From Candidatus Nomurabacteria bacterium CG_4_9_14_0_2_um_filter_32_10 (GTDB lineage: Bacteria; Patescibacteriota; Minisyncoccia; Phycocordibacterales; UBA9973), in assembly GCA_002788475.1 (NCBI GenBank), contig PFRK01000037.1, forward strand, positions 1 to 30,845: a stretch of 30,845 nt of DNA, in the 5' to 3' direction. This document shows, piece after piece, positions 7,302 through 30,258 of this stretch (its first letter is position 1; each line of letters opens with the position of its first letter). The translations under genes were made by a program, and so were the position numbers. The notes under the pieces are model-generated. The model saw nothing but the letters and a program-made list of their open reading frames with translations. It searched no databases and was not told the origin of the DNA.

Positions 7302-7565
7302 TTATTTTCGCTTTAATTGATAAACTTTTAAAATTTCTTTAGTAGCTTTATCAGCTTGACCTTTTTTTATTTGATTTACTAAACAATATCCTAAATGTCC
7401 TTCCATAAGCTTATCTTCTATAGTGGAAAGAGCCTGTTTAACAGCAGACGTTTGGGTAATAACATCTATACAATAGATGTCACTTTGAAGCATATTTTGC
7501 AAACCTCTTACTTGTCCCTCAATTATCTTTAATCTACGAATAAGTTTTTGTTTATCATTATGCAT
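7302..7565 (-). CDS. csoR: CsoR-family copper-sensing repressor (87 aa)
   Basis: RRLKIIEGQVRG plus C (YCID), H and C (EGHLGYC) ligands. Start reassigned to ATG 7565 because the longer ORF runs through the promoter, operator and a hairpin. Confidence 0.9.
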   Translation of the reverse strand: MHNDKQKLIRRLKIIEGQVRGLQNMLQSDIYCIDVITQTSAVKQALSTIEDKLMEGHLGYCLVNQIKKGQADKATKEILKVYQLKRK

Positions 7566-7571
7566 ATAAAC

Positions 7572-7600
7572 AGTATATACCCCTAGGGGGTATAAGTCAA
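7572..7600 (-). promoter_or_regulatory. Sigma70 promoter of the csoR-copA operon (TTGACT-N17-TATACT)
   Basis: -35 at 7595-7600 and -10 at 7572-7577; the -10 ends 6 nt before the ATG. Confidence 0.85.
7576..7594. promoter_or_regulatory. CsoR operator
   Basis: TATACCCC-TAG-GGGGTATA inverted repeat matches the TACCC...GGGTA CsoR box type and fills the promoter spacer. Confidence 0.9.
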
Positions 7601-7620
7601 ATAATTCACTGTGAAAAAAC

Positions 7621-7731
7621 AAAAAAACATTATAGATTGTGCTTTTTCCGGCATACGCAATATTAGATTCAGTTACCACATTCAGGTTGGAGTGCAAGCC
7701 GTGAAAAAGCAGCAATTTATGATGTTTTTTT
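7621..7731. repeat. Long hairpin E1 (32-bp stem, 2 bulges, 45-nt loop); homologous to E2
   Basis: 7621-7652 pairs with 7698-7731 (bulges T7702 and G7712). Loop boxes ATACGC and CAGGTTG are shared with E2. Confidence 0.7.
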
Positions 7732-8415
7732 AGGAATAGTTTCTTCTGGCTTTGTCTCTTGAAGCTCAAAAGATTCTTTCACACGAGATTCTAGTTCTTC
7801 AATGCTATGAAAACCAGTCAATACATTTCCTTCAATAACTAAAGCAGGAAGTTCAGTATCTTTTATTTTATAAATCTGAAGCATTGCTTTGACCGCTGAA
7901 AGGTCAATACTATAATCAAAAGAATAGACACGAAGTTCTGGATATTTATCCCGAAGAGAAGAAAGTACTAACCCTTCCCTTTCACATTCACTACAATTTT
8001 CTGCTGTTGTATAAAAATAAAGAATAAATGCTGCTTTAGTTTTACAACGTTCAGAAATCTTTTTTGTTAAGAGATAATCTTTAATTTGAAGAAGAGAATA
8101 GTATTTCTTCAAATATGAAACCGTATCTGTCGTTCCTAAATTATCTTGCCCCCACTCTAATTTACGCCCAAGTTCACCAAGTTCACCTGAAATAACATAA
8201 TCAGAAATATTTTTACAAGAAAGTTCTGAAAGTAATGTAAATTGAGTTTCAGAAGATAAAATATCTATTGATATTTTATCTTGAATTAATTTCAATTGAT
8301 CAATTTTTTTATTACCAAAATAATTACTAACATAGCTAGCACTCAAAAAAAGCCCAACTGTAAATAAAAAAACAATTAAATATTTTTTCCAATCAATGTG
8401 ATTATCTGTATTCAT
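7717..8415 (-). CDS. Membrane-anchored thioredoxin-fold-like protein
   Basis: N-terminal TM and a C-terminal domain with YFY...CSEC and RVYSFD...ELPALVI. Confidence 0.65.
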   Translation of the reverse strand: MNTDNHIDWKKYLIVFLFTVGLFLSASYVSNYFGNKKIDQLKLIQDKISIDILSSETQFTLLSELSCKNISDYVISGELGELGRKLEWGQDNLGTTDTVSYLKKYYSLLQIKDYLLTKKISERCKTKAAFILYFYTTAENCSECEREGLVLSSLRDKYPELRVYSFDYSIDLSAVKAMLQIYKIKDTELPALVIEGNVLTGFHSIEELESRVKESFELQETKPEETIPKKTS

Positions 8416-8433
8416 AATTCGTAATTCGTAATT
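8413..8433. repeat. Heptamer tandem repeat (C(G/A)TAATT x3) abutting a start codon
   Basis: cataatt-cgtaatt-cgtaatt. Confidence 0.8.
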
Positions 8434-8445
8434 TTTAATTGACCC

Positions 8446-9690
8446 TTATCTCCAAGCTGGCTTTCTAGACAGAATAGTATTATAAATAGCTTTTAAAAGC
8501 CAAAAAGGACCAATAGCACTGAAAACTAGAAGAAAATAAATCATATTAAAAGAAAAATCCCATTTTCCATCAACCATTTTTTTACCCAAAGTTATTGATA
8601 AAATAATTAATGAAAATAATAAAATAGCAATAAAAGAAAGAGATTGAGTATTTATAAAAAATGGATCAAAAAAATCAATATTAGAATTAAAGTTAAAACC
8701 TATAGTTTTAAATTCTAAAATTTTAGTAAATAAAAAATTACCCAAAGTATAAATCATTTTCCCAAAAAGATAACTAACTGCAAAAACAGAAACAATACTG
8801 GAAGGAATAGTAAAAAGTGAGAAATTACCATATTTTTTTCTAAAAAGTATCCCTCGATAATCAATCGTATTATTTATAAAACCATAAATCCAACGTAATC
8901 TTTGTTTATATAATTTTGTAATAGTCCCGGGAGTACTAGTATAAACATAAGCATCATTGCATTGCTCTATTTTATAATGATTTTTTTGCATTCTGTAAGC
9001 AATCTCCATATCTTCTGTATTATGAGCATGCCGATATGGACCTAAATCATCAAAAACTTTCTTACGAAATATAGTAAGTGGTCCTGGTGTTACATGTATA
9101 GCCCCTAATAAACCAAGCATCTTTTTTATATAAACAGACATATTATATTCAGCTCTTTGTGCACCTTGAATAATATTTTTTGAACCATTAGCAACAATCG
9201 AAGGAGATACTGCCATAATATTTATATCCTTTTCAAAATAACTCATAATACGAACGAGAGATTCGGGATCTGCAATAGAATCAGCATCAAGGCAACCTAA
9301 ATAATCAGTCTCAATATTTTCAAGACCTAAATTAAGTGCAGTATATTTTCCTCCATTCTCTTTATGAAAAACTTTTATATTAGAATATTTAGAAAATCTT
9401 AAAATAGCTGCCCACGTATTATCAGTAGACCCATCATCTATTAAAAAAATTCTCAACTTGTCTTTAGGATAATTGAGATCAAGAAGAGAACGTACTGTTT
9501 TATATATAGTTTTCTCTTCATTCCAAGAAGGAACGATGATAGTCACTTTTGGATACTTGGTAAGTTTAGTAGGCCCATTTCTTATAATTATTTTCTTCCT
9601 ATTTTCAAGAAAAGTGATTAATAAAAACACCTGTACATAAACAGATAAAAAAGTTAATACATAAAAGACCACATTCGAAATTGAAGCCAT
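8446..9690 (-). CDS. Processive GT2 glycosyltransferase (PgaC/IcaA/cellulose-synthase-like)
   Basis: DDGSTD, CLDADS, TED and QRLRW motifs with flanking TM helices. Confidence 0.9.
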   Translation of the reverse strand: MASISNVVFYVLTFLSVYVQVFLLITFLENRKKIIIRNGPTKLTKYPKVTIIVPSWNEEKTIYKTVRSLLDLNYPKDKLRIFLIDDGSTDNTWAAILRFSKYSNIKVFHKENGGKYTALNLGLENIETDYLGCLDADSIADPESLVRIMSYFEKDINIMAVSPSIVANGSKNIIQGAQRAEYNMSVYIKKMLGLLGAIHVTPGPLTIFRKKVFDDLGPYRHAHNTEDMEIAYRMQKNHYKIEQCNDAYVYTSTPGTITKLYKQRLRWIYGFINNTIDYRGILFRKKYGNFSLFTIPSSIVSVFAVSYLFGKMIYTLGNFLFTKILEFKTIGFNFNSNIDFFDPFFINTQSLSFIAILLFSLIILSITLGKKMVDGKWDFSFNMIYFLLVFSAIGPFWLLKAIYNTILSRKPAWR

Positions 9691-9713
9691 ATATACACTA
9701 TATAATATAACAT

Positions 9714-9852
9714 TTTAAGATAAAAAGCAATAAAAAATACAAATTAGTGCTTTCTGCAACATACGCTTCTGAAAGTTAGTATATTGTTTCCAGGTTGATA
9801 TGTGAGTTGCAAGAAAGTACTTAATTTGTATTTTTTAATATTTTATCTTAAA
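9714..9852. repeat. Long hairpin E2 (30-bp inner stem with 2 bulges, 12-bp outer stem, 45-nt loop)
   Basis: 9731-9760 pairs with 9806-9837 and 9714-9725 pairs with 9841-9852. Loop boxes are identical to E1. Confidence 0.75.
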
Positions 9853-10143
9853 TTACATGTTTCCTCCTGTATTTACACTTGTATCTACAGAAGCATTAAC
9901 TTCACATTTACTACATTTACATTCAAAAATAAACATAATAGCTGCAACTCCTACCAATACATACACAATACCCTCAAGAACGGGTGAAAAACCTAAAACC
10001 ATATTGACAACATTCCAGCCTTCTACACTACCTAAAAACATACCTAAACCTATTAAACCCCAATTTATTCCTCCGATAATTACTAAAATTTTAGTAATCC
10101 AAGTTAATGCACAACTACCTTTACTACAACAACCTTTACACAT
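9853..10143 (-). CDS. DUF378 membrane protein with Cys-rich termini
   Basis: ILVIIGGINWGLIG and IVYVLVGVAA motifs. Confidence 0.85.
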   Translation of the reverse strand: MCKGCCSKGSCALTWITKILVIIGGINWGLIGLGMFLGSVEGWNVVNMVLGFSPVLEGIVYVLVGVAAIMFIFECKCSKCEVNASVDTSVNTGGNM

Positions 10144-21258: not shown

Positions 21259-21344
21259 AAAAAAAGAGCGAATGCAAAAGTTTTCGCCTGCGGGCACTGG
21301 TTTCGTTTTGTCCGCCAGAAAATTTTTGTATTCGCTCTTTTTTT
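21259..21344. repeat. 86-bp long hairpin E3 between khpA and trmD
   Basis: 21259-21285 pairs with 21318-21344 (27 bp, 2 G-T); inner stem 21290-21296/21309-21315. Confidence 0.85.
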
Positions 21345-27951: not shown

Positions 27952-30258
27952 TTATTTTGCAATAGCTACTGCATCGTCTAATTTGACAGAAAGAAGCTTG
28001 GAAGATCCATCATTCCCTATAGTTACCCCATATAACGTACCAGCACGAGACATTGTCTCACGATTATGAGTGACAACAATAAGCTGAGAGGCCCCTGAGA
28101 GTTTTTCTAACATATCTCCATATTTGCGAGAATTTGATTCATCCAAAGCAGCATCCGTTTCATCAAGAACTAAGAATGGTGGTGGATTTACTTGTGACAT
28201 AGCAAAAAGAAGAGCAATAGATGTGAGTGATCTTTCCCCTCCTGAGAGTGCATTTAATTCTTTTACTTTTTTATGTGGGAGAGAAACATTTATCTCAATA
28301 CCCTGTTCAAAAACAATTTCATCTTCATCTCCTTCCTCTCCTTCTTCTTCCTTTCCTCTCTTCTTTTTATTTTCAGTTGTAACAGAGAGAAAGCCTGTTC
28401 CACCATCAAACATTAATGAGAAAAATTTATCAAATTCTATATTTATTTTTTTAATACCTTCTTTAAACTCTACATCAATTTTTTCTTTCAAATCCACCAT
28501 AAGTGTACGAAGTGACTCTATACTTACGACTAAATCTTCCATTTCTTTTGCCAAAAAATTATCTCTCTCTGAAACTTCTTCAAACTCTTTTATTATCTCA
28601 GACCCACCACCCAAACCAACATCTTCCAATTTTATCTTAATGCGTTCGATTTTTCGTCTTAACTCCTCCTGTTCTATTCTGTTTATTATGACCTCTCCGC
28701 CAAAGGCGGATCCGCCTTCAGTGGAAAAATTTTTGTAAGTTAATATCTCACTGCCAATAAGTATTTCACCTTCTTTTATCTCATTTTTAAAGGCTTCTGA
28801 TTCTTTTGATAAAGACTCCTCTTTTATCGATATGAGCCCCAAAGAAGAAGATAATTCTTGCTGTTTAACCCTAAAATTAAACTTTTCTTTTTCTTTTAAA
28901 TGTAAAGCCTCATTTTCTTGGTTAATCTCTTTTTTTAATATTTCTATTTTTTCAAAAATTTTCTTTTCTTCATCTGTAATATTTTGCATTTCAAGCAAAA
29001 TTTCTTGCTGATTCTTTTTTAACTCAGAATTCTCTGAAAATATAGTTTCTGAATGGTCTGGCTGGGATAGGGACCCAGAGAACCGAGAACCTGAAGAAAT
29101 TATATTTCCAGAGAATTCTTTTAAAATATTCTGAATTCTCAAAAGAATAATCTTGATTTCTGCTGCACTATCTTCTACAATAGCTATTTCTATTTCAGAA
29201 TTAATTTCATCAAATATAGCCTTTATTTCTTCAGGGTTTTTTATCGAAACTTCTGGAATTTTTTCACTTCTCCTCTCTTCCATTTCTATCATTCCTTCGA
29301 TTCTTCCCAATTTACGTTCTATTTCATTCTTAACATTACGAATTTCACTTATTTTTTTCTCAAAGATTTTTAATTCTTTTTCCCCGCCTACATCGCTATG
29401 CATAGCATTGTAGGCAGGTTTTTCATTTTCTTCTATATCTGAAATGTTTTTATTTATATCTCCTAATTCTATCTCTATTTTGCTCTTTTCACTAAGTAAA
29501 CTGGACTGCTCTTTTTCTAAATAAATACTTTCTTTCTTTAAATATTCTTTATATAAAGATAAAAGTGACACCTGCATTTCTTTTGCTTTCTCAAATTTAT
29601 CTACTTGTTTTTTTAAAAAATTCAAATGTGGAGCATTTTCTCGACGTAAAAGAGAGACCTCCTTCATATTATTAGTAGTCCTTTCTAGTTTACGTTGTGC
29701 TTCTTTTATTTTATATTGGTAAATTTTAAGTCCAAGAGCATCTTCTACCATCTCTCTCCTATCTCTAGGAGATGCATTCAATATCCTATCTGCTTCACCT
29801 TGGGAAATGATGTGATGCCCAGAAGAACCAATATTAACTGATGATAAAAGATTATTAATATCTTTTAATCTCACCTCCGAGCCATTCAAAATGTATTTAT
29901 TTAACCCATCAGAAAAAACTTCACGAGAAATTGAGATGACATCGTAATTTAAATTAAAATTTTCACCTGTTTCATTAGAAAGTTTAAAAACTTTATCAGA
30001 GTTATCAAAATATATCGTAACAACTGCACGTGAACTTTTTGGCAAATTTTTAGATCCTTTAAAAATTAAATCAGATCCTGATGTTCCACGCATTGACTTC
30101 ATTGATTGTTCTCCTAAAACAAAGCGAAGTGCTTCTACAACATTTGACTTACCAGATCCATTTGGACCTACTATAGAAATAATAGGATTCTGGAATTCCA
30201 AAATTATTTTTTTTGAAAAAGATTTAAAACCATTAATTTCAAGATTCTTTAATCGCAT
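27952..30258 (-). CDS. smc: Short SMC-family ATPase (768 aa)
   Basis: GPNGSGKSN Walker A, LSGGE signature, FLVLDETDAALD Walker B/D-loop and VVTHN; adjacent to rnc. Confidence 0.9.
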   Translation of the reverse strand: MRLKNLEINGFKSFSKKIILEFQNPIISIVGPNGSGKSNVVEALRFVLGEQSMKSMRGTSGSDLIFKGSKNLPKSSRAVVTIYFDNSDKVFKLSNETGENFNLNYDVISISREVFSDGLNKYILNGSEVRLKDINNLLSSVNIGSSGHHIISQGEADRILNASPRDRREMVEDALGLKIYQYKIKEAQRKLERTTNNMKEVSLLRRENAPHLNFLKKQVDKFEKAKEMQVSLLSLYKEYLKKESIYLEKEQSSLLSEKSKIEIELGDINKNISDIEENEKPAYNAMHSDVGGEKELKIFEKKISEIRNVKNEIERKLGRIEGMIEMEERRSEKIPEVSIKNPEEIKAIFDEINSEIEIAIVEDSAAEIKIILLRIQNILKEFSGNIISSGSRFSGSLSQPDHSETIFSENSELKKNQQEILLEMQNITDEEKKIFEKIEILKKEINQENEALHLKEKEKFNFRVKQQELSSSLGLISIKEESLSKESEAFKNEIKEGEILIGSEILTYKNFSTEGGSAFGGEVIINRIEQEELRRKIERIKIKLEDVGLGGGSEIIKEFEEVSERDNFLAKEMEDLVVSIESLRTLMVDLKEKIDVEFKEGIKKINIEFDKFFSLMFDGGTGFLSVTTENKKKRGKEEEGEEGDEDEIVFEQGIEINVSLPHKKVKELNALSGGERSLTSIALLFAMSQVNPPPFLVLDETDAALDESNSRKYGDMLEKLSGASQLIVVTHNRETMSRAGTLYGVTIGNDGSSKLLSVKLDDAVAIAK
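28696..28725. repeat. Family A 30-bp insert in smc (STEGGSAFGG)
   Basis: tccgccaaaggcggatccgccttcagtgga. Confidence 0.9.
29026..29119. repeat. Inverted-repeat-bounded segment inside smc
   Basis: 29026-29050 pairs with 29095-29119 (23/25); GC-rich core with ctggg/cccag hairpin and gagaacc x2. Confidence 0.55.
29383..29418. repeat. 36-bp palindromic insert in smc (PAYNAMHSDVGG)
   Basis: 15 of 18 pairs matched, centred on ATGCAT; ends are CCTGCC/GGCGGG on the coding strand; exactly 12 codons. Confidence 0.9.

Follow-up and report, generated by a model that had tools for sequence, protein, structure and literature searches.

Two long hairpins, E1 and E2, that occur in the window (the whole 30,845-nucleotide stretch of Candidatus Nomurabacteria DNA that was analysed) are very probably two copies of a ~107-nt non-autonomous mobile palindromic DNA element, here termed family A; that family A is a mobile repeat is held with somewhat higher confidence. 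On this reading the two hairpins are a selfish hairpin-shaped repeat; they neither regulate the genes they enclose as a switch nor serve them as a recombination site. Family A spreads within Candidatus Nomurabacteria genomes, and its copies are oriented in a polar manner relative to the direction of replication. At gene ends it inserts beside A/T runs, either in a terminator slot or at the foot of another hairpin; it also enters tolerant protein loops, where it is kept in one orientation and frame only.

When the + strand was folded, E1 gave –40.7 kcal/mol (z –7.1, a value equalled by none of 200 shuffled sequences) and E2 –44.9 kcal/mol (z –7.0). E1 matched the family-A covariance model (CM; model R1) with 119 bits (E 2.8e-23), and E2 matched the family-A CM with 89 bits (E 1.5e-16). 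Folds and CM matches thus agree with the preliminary description, in which the two hairpins were considered homologous, with paired stems and 45-nt loops sharing a motif. The E1 stem comprises 32 pairs (7621-7652/7698-7731), and the E2 loop lies at 9761-9805. The sequence ATACGC-N24-CAGGTTG occupies loop positions 1-6 and 31-37 in E1 and E2 alike; this exact pattern occurs three times in the genome and was absent from the reversed control. The two bulges that had been described on the same arm, some 10 nt apart, are present in both hairpins (near 9811 and 9821 in E2) and are kept family-wide (columns 82/83 and 92/93 of the alignment); next to them a U.G pair, at columns 28-84, is also conserved. 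The G-T pairs had been placed on the + strand, with which the better folding of this strand agrees (–40.7 versus –33.7 kcal/mol for E1; –44.9 versus –41.4 kcal/mol for E2). The ‘top’ strand of E1 (ATACGC...CAGGTTG) is the + strand of the window and is antisense to the genes.

The reported position at gene ends was also borne out. E1 overlaps the TAA (7717-7719) of the minus-strand CxxC gene, whose last codons (KKTS-stop) come from the right arm of E1, while the outer helix of E2 stops one base short of the minus-strand TAA at 9853-9855. The hairpin originally delimited at 9714-9852 exists, but the repeat unit within it is shorter (Table 1). The outer helix is native spacer outside the repeat unit, since relatives without E2 carry the same helix in other spellings (TTTAAGTG/CACTTAAA, TTTAAGG/CCTTAAA or TTTGAGG/CCTCAAA) round a terminator of their own.

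Table 1. Features of the window relevant to E1 and E2
Feature	Position	Strand	Evidence
E1, complete family-A hairpin element, 111 nt	7621..7731	+	fold, CM match, boundary analysis
E1 loop, 45 nt, conserved core of family A	7653..7697	+	fold, copy alignment
E1 single-base bulges T7702 and G7712 on the 3′ arm, 10 nt apart	7702..7712	+	fold
E2, 107-nt element from a divergent subfamily of family A	9731..9837	+	fold, CM match, boundary analysis
Outer helix around E2, 9714-9725 with 9841-9852	within 9714..9852	+	fold
csoR, heading the copper operon that lies downstream of E1	7302..7565	-	PF02583, E 6e-23
Promoter-like site of csoR, TTGACT-17-TATACT, with an overlapping CsoR-box-like palindrome	7572..7600	-	sequence motifs; palindrome in relatives lacking E1
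Membrane-anchored CxxC protein	7717..8415	-	CxxC motif; no Pfam match
GT2 glycosyltransferase	8446..9690	-	PF00535, E 1.5e-32
DUF378 gene, terminator slot taken by E2	9853..10143	-	PF04070; spacer comparison
Family-E hairpin, 27-bp A/T-rich stem, 32-nt GC-rich core	21259..21344	+	fold, family comparison
Family-F hairpin, in frame in the smc-like ORF 27952-30258	29026..29119	-	fold, family comparison

The product of the CxxC gene, previously labelled a thioredoxin, contains the CxxC motif, and a Pfam search returned no match for it. Read in the sense direction, the csoR promoter-like site comes immediately after E1, and its CsoR-box-like palindrome is also kept in relatives that lack E1. A longer ORF (7302-7769) crossing E1 was dismissed: it extends csoR spuriously, Pfam similarity beginning only at residue 72.

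The CM search that the preliminary description had proposed yielded many more copies. Nine were found in the 606-kb genome (E 1e-16 to 1e-25), and family A was detected in 31 of the 151 genomes of the genus that were searched, with 1-19 copies each; none was found in 24 genomes belonging to other families of the order. Copies are uniform in length (101-115 nt) and share one layout: an A-run, a locus-variable stem of ~18 bp, a 14-bp inner stem, the 45-nt loop, the complementary arm and a T-run. The inner stem, an inverted pair with the two bulges, is conserved, as is the 45-nt spacer, while the outer arms vary; a 72-nt core is 85-94% identical between unlinked loci and inside ORFs. Across 38 distinct copies, 24 of the 30 stem pairs have changed on both sides and 96% of the cells pair, a level attained by none of 500 shuffles, confirming that the stem is retained through compensatory changes. 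The covariation score of the stem was 0.437, as opposed to 0.158 in shuffles and ~0.09 in slid controls. Among non-canonical stem pairs, G.T outnumber A.C (59 versus 15; 29 versus 15 once the single conserved U.G is left out), favouring the strand antisense to genes. Two small helices that RNAalifold proposed inside the loop had no compensatory change in the copy alignment, and therefore no structure is claimed there.

E1 and a copy on contig C25, at unlinked loci, have related stems with compensatory differences and are 94% identical over 72 nt of core and inner stem. What is copied is the entire hairpin with its arms, as indicated by such related, compensated stems at unlinked loci, by the uniform length and by an E2-type stem in the other slot of genome G065, where the E1 site holds an element of the E2 subfamily with the same stem as E2. 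The alternative that the outer arms are copied from the target or from prior terminators was rejected as a main rule, given the uniform length of the hairpins and the presence of related arms at loci that are not linked. The contrast of variable stem and conserved loop drawn from E1 and E2 holds between different sites, but not between same-site copies: upstream of mnmA, the copies of this genome and of G010 differ at 1 position in 44 nt of stem and at 9 in 51 nt of loop. No target-site duplication, flanking direct repeat or conserved target word was found at family-A copies, only A/T runs, beyond which the termini differ among copies; the terminal inverted repeats and target-site duplication of a classical MITE are thus not what family A displays.

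Family A also occurs within protein genes, with 14 in-frame copies at 13 sites (tgt, a SAM methyltransferase gene, mnmA twice and other ORFs). All lie on the same strand, opposite to that bearing ATACGC, and in the same frame, giving a LLSHGSHSNLNVVNETNIAYAEEST-like peptide. That these copies are open and in frame suggests, as far as the sequence goes, that they are translated.

Comparison of orthologous sites showed plain short terminators, different hairpin families or nothing at the E1 and E2 spots of relatives. The E2 slot is occupied in this genome, in G006 (an orthologous E2 copy) and in G065, and in most of ~110 loci it holds an ordinary short terminator. In genome G069 it holds a family-E hairpin whose stem and core are those of the window's own family-E element, and in L131 the left arm of E2 on its own, together with a family-C hairpin. 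The E1 slot is empty in G071, G081, G032 and L122, all of which have csoR and its operator, and G141 has nine copies of family A elsewhere and none at either slot. A copy without a loop is found at G141:C1:135218-135282; this and a loop-less hairpin with the same arms in the E2 slot of L122 could be deletion products or precursors. The patchy distribution could stem partly from loss rather than gain. In contigs of four groundwater runs no joint skipping E1 or E2 was seen and the depth of the E1 core was raised; in the population data examined, neither a transposition event nor an excision joint was seen, nor any empty/filled allele.

At least eight further hairpin families with the family-A layout are present in this genome, which in 606 kb holds at least nine multi-copy hairpin families and at least 45 copies; at C54:2476-2773 three different families abut. 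Family F is the only one with a significant match to a tRNA (15 nt of tRNA-Lys; BLAST against the 32 tRNAs of the genome). A tRNA origin of the family-A core, considered on account of its T-arm-like word GGTTCGAGTGCGAG, was rejected, the same BLAST scoring no better than shuffles.

The orientation of the copies follows a rule. Of 18 copies between co-directional genes, 17 are antisense to those genes, and in the near-complete genomes G141 and G006 the ATACGC strand coincides with the negative-GC-skew (lagging) strand in 20 of 22 copies. Among those that fit are 9 of the 10 copies situated in spacers of convergent or divergent genes, which lack a transcription cue. Replication-linked orientation points to a single-strand DNA step. 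By analogy with IS608, the active strand of family A should be the one opposite to that favoured by G.T pairs, a point against the proposed reading.

Six RAYT-like genes matched Y1_Tnp (PF01797) at scores exceeding the Pfam cut-off and encode HUH and Tyr motifs; their products scored 28-67 bits against NCBIfam NF047646, whose cut-off is 80. In four cases a RAYT-like gene is found 1.4-2.7 kb from a copy of family A, by a rough estimate only about twice the number expected by chance, and the RAYT orthogroup with the genome's own C13 is the one common to the four high-copy genomes compared, G000, G006, G010 and G065. Close orthologues from this orthogroup are, however, also present in many family-A-negative genomes. 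No family-A copy was found within 22 RAYT-like loci of five genomes, and a no-filter CM search there returned generic short palindromes only. Mobilisation of family A by Y1/RAYT enzymes is a tentative proposal, and rather doubtful.

A terminator role has to be considered for E1 and E2. Each comes immediately after a stop codon and precedes the following promoter-like site, and in the mRNA sense the stem leads into U7 (E1) or U6 (E2). Their A/T-rich stems of 30-32 bp and 45-nt loops are unlike a short GC-rich terminator stem with a 3-8-nt loop. Judged from these sequence features, the chances that the two act as terminators at these sites are about even. The G.T excess on the antisense strand is the opposite of what would be predicted for an RNA terminator on the sense strand. 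It is very unlikely that both are simply ordinary bidirectional intrinsic terminators whose long stems grew in situ, with a convergent or locally inherited loop motif. The location past stop codons with A-run and T-run and the ordinary terminators in the same slots of relatives would fit such an origin, but copies dispersed over unlinked loci and within ORFs, with a core 85-94% identical, already contradict it. In addition, the canonical terminators of this genome are short GC-rich stems with 3-4-nt loops, and a simple terminator scan of the sequence called neither E1 nor E2.

The strong stem covariation, the conserved bulges and loop and the G.U pairs favouring the + strand might instead reflect a structured non-coding RNA with a function of its own, or an RNA element recognised by a protein (antisense on the + strand, or in a 3′ UTR), with a functional loop on a scaffold stem. 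The preliminary description recognised no known riboswitch or ribozyme, and an Rfam scan likewise gave nothing at gathering score, only sub-threshold miRNA-precursor models (18-25 bits versus cut-offs of 89-140). An RNA of this kind is nevertheless quite unlikely. Fourteen copies lie in frame within housekeeping ORFs, a location not expected of a dedicated riboswitch, a processing signal or the boundary of a cassette; the suggested processing element is unsupported. Nor does such an RNA sit well with the patchy occurrence and variable copy number, the orthologous sites variably filled or taken by other hairpins or plain terminators, the loop helices devoid of compensatory change or the loop-less copy; no promoter evidence was found for the + strand. 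Extremely unlikely is a third possibility, that attC-like or other site-specific recombination sites bracket the GT2-CxxC pair as a mobile cassette. Two elements in the same orientation do surround a two-gene unit, and the attC-like extrahelical bases had been correctly noted, the bulges being on the 3′ arm; the swapping of subfamilies between slots in G065, with a solo arm left over, indicates exchange at these sites. However, the order DUF378-GT2-CxxC is kept in 30 of the 30 genus loci compared and GT2 was found in 61 of the 61 genus genomes searched, with or without hairpins, which removes the ground for the proposed module at 7717-9690; the GT2-CxxC pair is neither a mobile module nor one under special regulation. 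Co-occurrence with a tyrosine recombinase, also raised earlier, was not seen: there is one Xer-like PF00589 gene per genome, none adjoining a copy, and none was found in G065, the genome with most copies. As previously remarked for the R-box, the ends are A/T runs with no AAC/GTT box, it being the loop rather than the ends that is conserved, and most copies flank nothing particular or are inside genes.

A mobile hairpin repeat has several counterparts in other systems. Integron attC sites function in a folded single strand, with free stem sequence and extrahelical bases on one arm. Family A resembles them in its varying stem and its two single-base bulges on one arm, but differs in lacking R''/R' boxes of the form RYYYAAC/GTTRRRY where the stem begins and ends, an integrase and cassette variability. 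Single-strand transposition of IS200/IS605 is reportedly coupled to replication, a finding ascribed to Ton-Hoang et al. in 2010. Family A shares with these elements and their miniature derivatives a replication-biased orientation, an imperfect hairpin whose extrahelical bases make it the probable feature for recognition, and the absence of target duplication; unlike them (two subterminal hairpins and a defined target tetranucleotide), it has one hairpin and no target word was found. The GC clusters of yeast mitochondria and the ‘byp’ elements of Magnusiomyces are GC-richer palindromic mini-elements in A/T-rich compact genomes, coding regions included, and the mitochondrial byps of Magnusiomyces are skipped by the ribosome. 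Family A, likewise GC-richer and palindromic, has invaded an A/T-rich genome including its coding regions, although it is non-organellar and unrelated in sequence, and its coding copies are open and in frame. It is also like another terminator-like mobile repeat in its gene-end site and in being bunched with other repeat families; the organism and sequence are different, termination would be a predicted property of family A, and the 45-nt loop is un-terminator-like.

The Rickettsia palindromic elements RPE-1 to RPE-10, described by Ogata et al. in 2000 and 2002, are hairpin repeats of ~100-150 bp, many of them in frame in housekeeping genes; each family gives a conserved peptide, other copies are intergenic, and no transposase is known (PMC10969869). 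Family A is similar in being a multi-copy hairpin repeat of a small A/T-rich genome, with several families and in-frame copies, and dissimilar in its host (Patescibacteria) and in arms that vary with strict compensation around a conserved centre; replication polarity and use of terminator slots were found for family A. REP and REPIN elements are non-autonomous hairpin repeats associated with RAYT (TnpA-REP) Y1 transposases (PMC3116915, PMC3337134). Family A shares with them a non-autonomous nature and clustering or abutting, and may compare with them in its inverted pair of short conserved units and in the Y1 HUH relatives that are candidate mobilisers in the genome; in contrast to REPs, which are extragenic, it also occurs in ORFs and conserves a 45-nt spacer of its own. 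A RAYT gene is normally flanked by its own REPs, whereas family A has none at RAYT-like loci, and this genome differs from REPIN systems in having six RAYT-like paralogues, all below the NCBIfam cut-off.

These observations are consistent with a model in which the copying of family A would pass through a hairpin of single-stranded DNA at the replication fork, in the manner of IS200/IS605 and REP/REPIN elements. The bulged inner stem and the loop would be recognised by a trans-acting enzyme, for which the six RAYT-like HUH Y1 paralogues are the best candidates. E1 and E2 would stand in place of the ordinary intrinsic terminators that once followed the GT2-CxxC operon and the DUF378 gene, and, as A-run/stem/T-run copies, may well have taken over termination at these sites. 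A wider generalisation is more tentative still, and unlikely as it stands: that Candidatus Nomurabacteria, and perhaps Patescibacteria more widely, harbour a superfamily of replication-coupled single-strand hairpin transposons, in which a hairpin of ~107 nt is mobile, the bulged inner stem and loop form the recognition module, each family has a RAYT-like Y1 enzyme, terminators are continually replaced and peptide loops are added to essential proteins.

Among the papers searched, none links CPR, Patescibacteria or Parcubacteria with palindromic or MITE-type elements, and none describes family A. Genomes of 0.6-0.9 Mb are thought to be free of selfish DNA; this small genome nonetheless contains at least nine families of long hairpin repeats, with at least 45 members in all, plus six transposase-like genes. 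If the proposed reading is true, the terminators at gene ends would partly be recycled mobile DNA, and essential enzymes, MnmA, Tgt and SMC among them, would repeatedly gain inserts of ~35 residues at the same surface sites. Annotation would mis-call ORFs through hairpins, as with ORF 7302-7769, and assemblies would be interrupted by them, as where contig C25 ends. The strict replication orientation would also provide a testable handle on copying in unculturable organisms.

Reading of positions 7500-10000 and folding of both strands bore out the preliminary description of two long hairpins with 45-nt loops, same-arm bulges and a shared loop motif. E1 forms 32 pairs, and the two bulges of E2 also lie on a single arm. 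The fold energies of both had z-scores of about -7 relative to shuffled sequences (0/200 as good), the + strand folding more stably than the - strand (E1, -40.7 versus -33.7 kcal/mol; E2, -44.9 versus -41.4 kcal/mol). No matching riboswitch or ribozyme had been recognised earlier, and an Rfam scan returned nothing at the gathering score; permissive filters gave only sub-threshold miRNA-precursor models, i.e. generic long hairpins. The pattern ATACGC-N24-CAGGTTG, in register in the two loops, occurs three times in the source genome (G000; 606 kb, 58 contigs) and never in the reversed control. The third match, on contig C25, was the starting point of a census by BLAST and covariance model, which brought the number of copies of this hairpin (family A) to nine: E1, E2, two on C54, and one each on C25, C30, C39, C43 and C17. 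E1 and E2 are two members of a dispersed family.

Features of the window
Feature	Position	Strand	Remarks
ORF of 155 aa	7302-7769	-	runs through E1
csoR promoter-like site and putative operator	7572-7600	-	directly after E1
E1, family-A hairpin	7621-7731	+ (ATACGC strand)	loop 7653-7697; T7702 and G7712 bulged
GT2-CxxC spacer with ATTCGTAATTCGTAAT repeat	8368-8481
Outer helix	9714-9725 with 9841-9852		encloses terminator slot of DUF378-GT2 spacer
E2, family-A repeat unit	9731-9837	+ (ATACGC strand)	loop 9761-9805
Hairpin of other family	21259-21344		family E; inverted-repeat census
Hairpin of other family	29026-29119		family F; in frame within smc-like ORF

When the nine copies were aligned, 17 of the 38 predicted pairs showed compensatory changes. 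Among 38 distinct copies from six genomes, 24 of 30 main-stem pairs were altered on both sides, with 96% of cells pairing, and the covariation score was 0.437, as against 0.158 in shuffles (0/500 reached the observed value) and ∼0.09 with partners slid; two small helices predicted within the loop showed no compensatory changes in these copies. Both bulges and a U.G pair adjoining the inner one are conserved across the family. The covariance-model search that had been proposed (model R1) found further copies, with matches in 31 of the 151 genomes searched within the genus, Candidatus Nomurabacteria (1-19 copies each, a lower bound, 25 candidates per genome being scored); no family A was found in 24 genomes of other families of the same order. 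The unpublished genome G084 is included in this count and in those for GT2 and the RAYT-like orthogroup (see below), the last also taking in the unpublished G146 and G154; these genomes contributed counts only, and none of the loci described.

Family A is one of many such families in the source genome, where an inverted-repeat census revealed at least nine with multiple copies, family A included (at least 45 copies in total). All have an A/T-rich, locus-variable stem of ∼20-29 bp around a conserved core that is richer in GC and 32-95 nt long, unlike the ordinary terminators of this genome, which have short GC-rich stems and loops of 3-4 nt. Families E, A and B lie head to tail without spacing in one 310-nt spacer (G000:C54:2476-2773), an array resembling a BIME cluster. 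The family-F core (in the window and at G000:C13:3200-3295) shares an exact 15-nt word with the variable loop and T arm of tRNA-Lys(ttt) (0/100 shuffles as good), a match absent from every other hairpin family. Family-A hairpins begin in an A-run, finish in a T-run and measure 101-115 nt regardless of stem sequence. Related arms recur at unlinked loci (E1 and the C25 copy; family E across two genomes), and at a site upstream of mnmA shared with the related genome G010 the stems differ at 1 of 44 positions and the loops at 9 of 51. Uniform length, related arms at unlinked loci and arms kept at the same site therefore identify the whole hairpin as the unit copied; its arms are therefore constrained to pair. 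Neither a target duplication nor a fixed target word was seen at family-A copies, which are found in A/T runs and at the feet of other hairpins.

ORFs contain 14 copies in all, at 13 sites, among them the C25 copy (in tgt), one C54 copy (in a SAM-methyltransferase gene) and two in mnmA of G010. In all 14 the ATACGC strand is opposite the coding strand and a single frame is used, reading LLSHG(S/T)(H/Y)SNLNVVNETNIAYAEEST; since elements turned the other way can likewise be read without a stop (as in E1 and in G010), stop codons alone are insufficient to explain this uniformity. The SAM methyltransferase of G071 has no insert, those of G006 and G008 have other short palindromes at the site, and that of G065 has the same family-A copy; the source-genome mnmA has unrelated short inserts exactly at both places occupied in G010. 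Comparison of orthologues shows the in-gene copies to be insertions at permissive sites. This mnmA (G000:C17:8152-9324) bears three short inserts in all, with RPDLK/SDLKEL-like peptides and AGGCCAGACCTTAA-type words. The assembly contains two copies of tgt (G000:C25:1-260 and G000:C45:700-900; loci L008 and L014), both with an in-frame GC-rich hairpin whose centre is inverted between them; contig C25 stops exactly at this hairpin, and the family-A copy is in C25 only, not in C45. Inversion of the loop, differences between strains or an error of assembly could account for the inverted centre.

The preliminary description had also considered a recombination site bracketing the GT2-CxxC pair, in which case the enclosed genes might vary. 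They are constant: GT2 was present in 61/61 genus genomes searched and the DUF378-GT2-CxxC order was kept in 30/30 loci compared, and it is the slots that vary in hairpin content. At the E2 slot, in the spacer separating DUF378 from GT2, a short terminator of the ordinary kind is present in most relatives, with a conserved promoter-like stretch after it; the source genome, G006 and G065 alone have family A in this slot, and one further locus (L124) has a copy nearby. The same slot holds a family-E hairpin in G069, its stem matching that at window position 21259; the left arm of the E2 element on its own, with a family-C hairpin immediately after it, in locus L131; and a short hairpin with a family-E outer stem and no core in locus L122. 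The E1 slot (the CxxC-csoR spacer) is empty in G071, G081, G032 and L122, with csoR and its palindromic operator still in place. In G065 two subfamilies are exchanged between slots relative to the source genome, the E1 slot containing an E2-type element with the same stem, beside a single arm of the other type; both slots lack family A in G141, which has nine copies elsewhere. These comparisons therefore indicate that hairpin elements have replaced one another repeatedly where terminators sit; E1 and E2 do not bracket a GT2-CxxC cassette. The suggested tyrosine recombinase fits no better: there is one Xer-like gene per genome and none was detected in G065, the genome with most family-A copies, which speaks against an integrase partner. 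The GT2-CxxC spacer had a summed contig depth of 200-600x in four groundwater runs (flanks, ∼5-10x), and therefore contains a short sequence common to many organisms or loci; a AATTACGAATTACGAAT hairpin at G000:C16:11993-12073 resembles its repeat.

A RAYT-like Y1 enzyme is a plausible candidate mobiliser. In the source genome six genes match PF01797 (Y1_Tnp; contigs C5, C6, C13, C36, C39 and C48, loci L100-L105). Their products are 212-232 aa long and contain HUH and Tyr motifs; the nearest NCBIfam model is the REP-associated tyrosine transposase, at scores below cut-off. A tree of 23 RAYT-like proteins from five genomes gave ∼7 orthogroups; the one common to the four high-copy genomes compared was widespread in family-A-negative genomes too, and no family-A copy was present in 22 RAYT-like loci. 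Several of the six source-genome genes have short GC-rich palindromes over their 3' ends or start regions (e.g. C48:8591-8633, C36:674-706, C39:569-652 and 847-877). Two near-identical full-length IS200-type TnpA genes in G065 (C3:74744-75899 and C25:1855-2202) match the Pfam profile from end to end (positions 2-121 and 4-121); they stand apart from the RAYT-like group and have the appearance of an active IS of that relative.

Single-strand transposition by HUH Y1 enzymes (IS608/ISDra2) yields replication-linked polarity. With GC skew computed on a rebuilt 598-kb contig of G141 and two ∼330-kb contigs of G006, the ATACGC strand was on the negative-skew (lagging) strand in 20/22 copies; in convergent or divergent spacers, which offer no transcription cue, 9/10 followed the replichore. 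Of 18 copies between co-directional genes, 17 were antisense to these. All these counts overstate independence, some copies being related by descent. Where the neighbouring genes oppose replication, as they do at a single copy (G006:C20:217755), that copy is oriented with the genes. Analogy with IS608/ISDra2 would make the gene-sense strand the active one, yet, at odds with this, the non-canonical pairs favour the opposite strand (59 G.T versus 15 A.C; 29 versus 15 without the conserved U.G).

In having in-frame copies with a conserved peptide, family A matches the Rickettsia palindromic elements (PMC10969869); it also recalls REPIN/RAYT systems, as outlined in the abstracts of PMC3116915 and PMC3337134, and the terminator-like SPRITE repeat. 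It is set apart by arms that vary between loci yet pair, a conserved centre, the lack of a flanking RAYT, and copies in genes. No publication on such elements in CPR bacteria was found.

Each of E1 and E2 closely follows a stop codon and closely precedes the next promoter-like site. After E1 this is TTGACT-17-TATACT, overlapping a perfect, CsoR-box-like palindrome that precedes csoR-copA (ATACCCC-TA-GGGGGTAT) and is kept in relatives with and without E1; for E2 the site is the conserved promoter-like stretch of GT2. In the mRNA sense U7 follows E1 and U6 follows E2, and relatives have plain terminators at these positions, from which we infer that both copies probably serve as terminators today, perhaps in both directions; their 45-nt loop is atypical for a terminator. 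That the outer helix has other spellings in relatives (AAGTG/CACTT, AAGG/CCTT, GAGG/CCTC) suggests a native structure that covaries and links the stop region of DUF378 with the promoter region of GT2. A G141 copy with family-A arms, an inner stem and a one-base loop (G141:C1:135218-135282; L076:15218-15282) either arose by deletion or represents a precursor; such loop-less hairpins, with family-A arms here or family-E arms in the L122 E2 slot, resemble ordinary terminators. Decay of mobile hairpins may have produced some terminators of the genus or, conversely, hairpins may develop out of terminators. The 155-aa ORF traverses E1 only because E1 is open in that frame, the true csoR start being at 7565; hairpins of this kind may lead gene callers to make genes too long.
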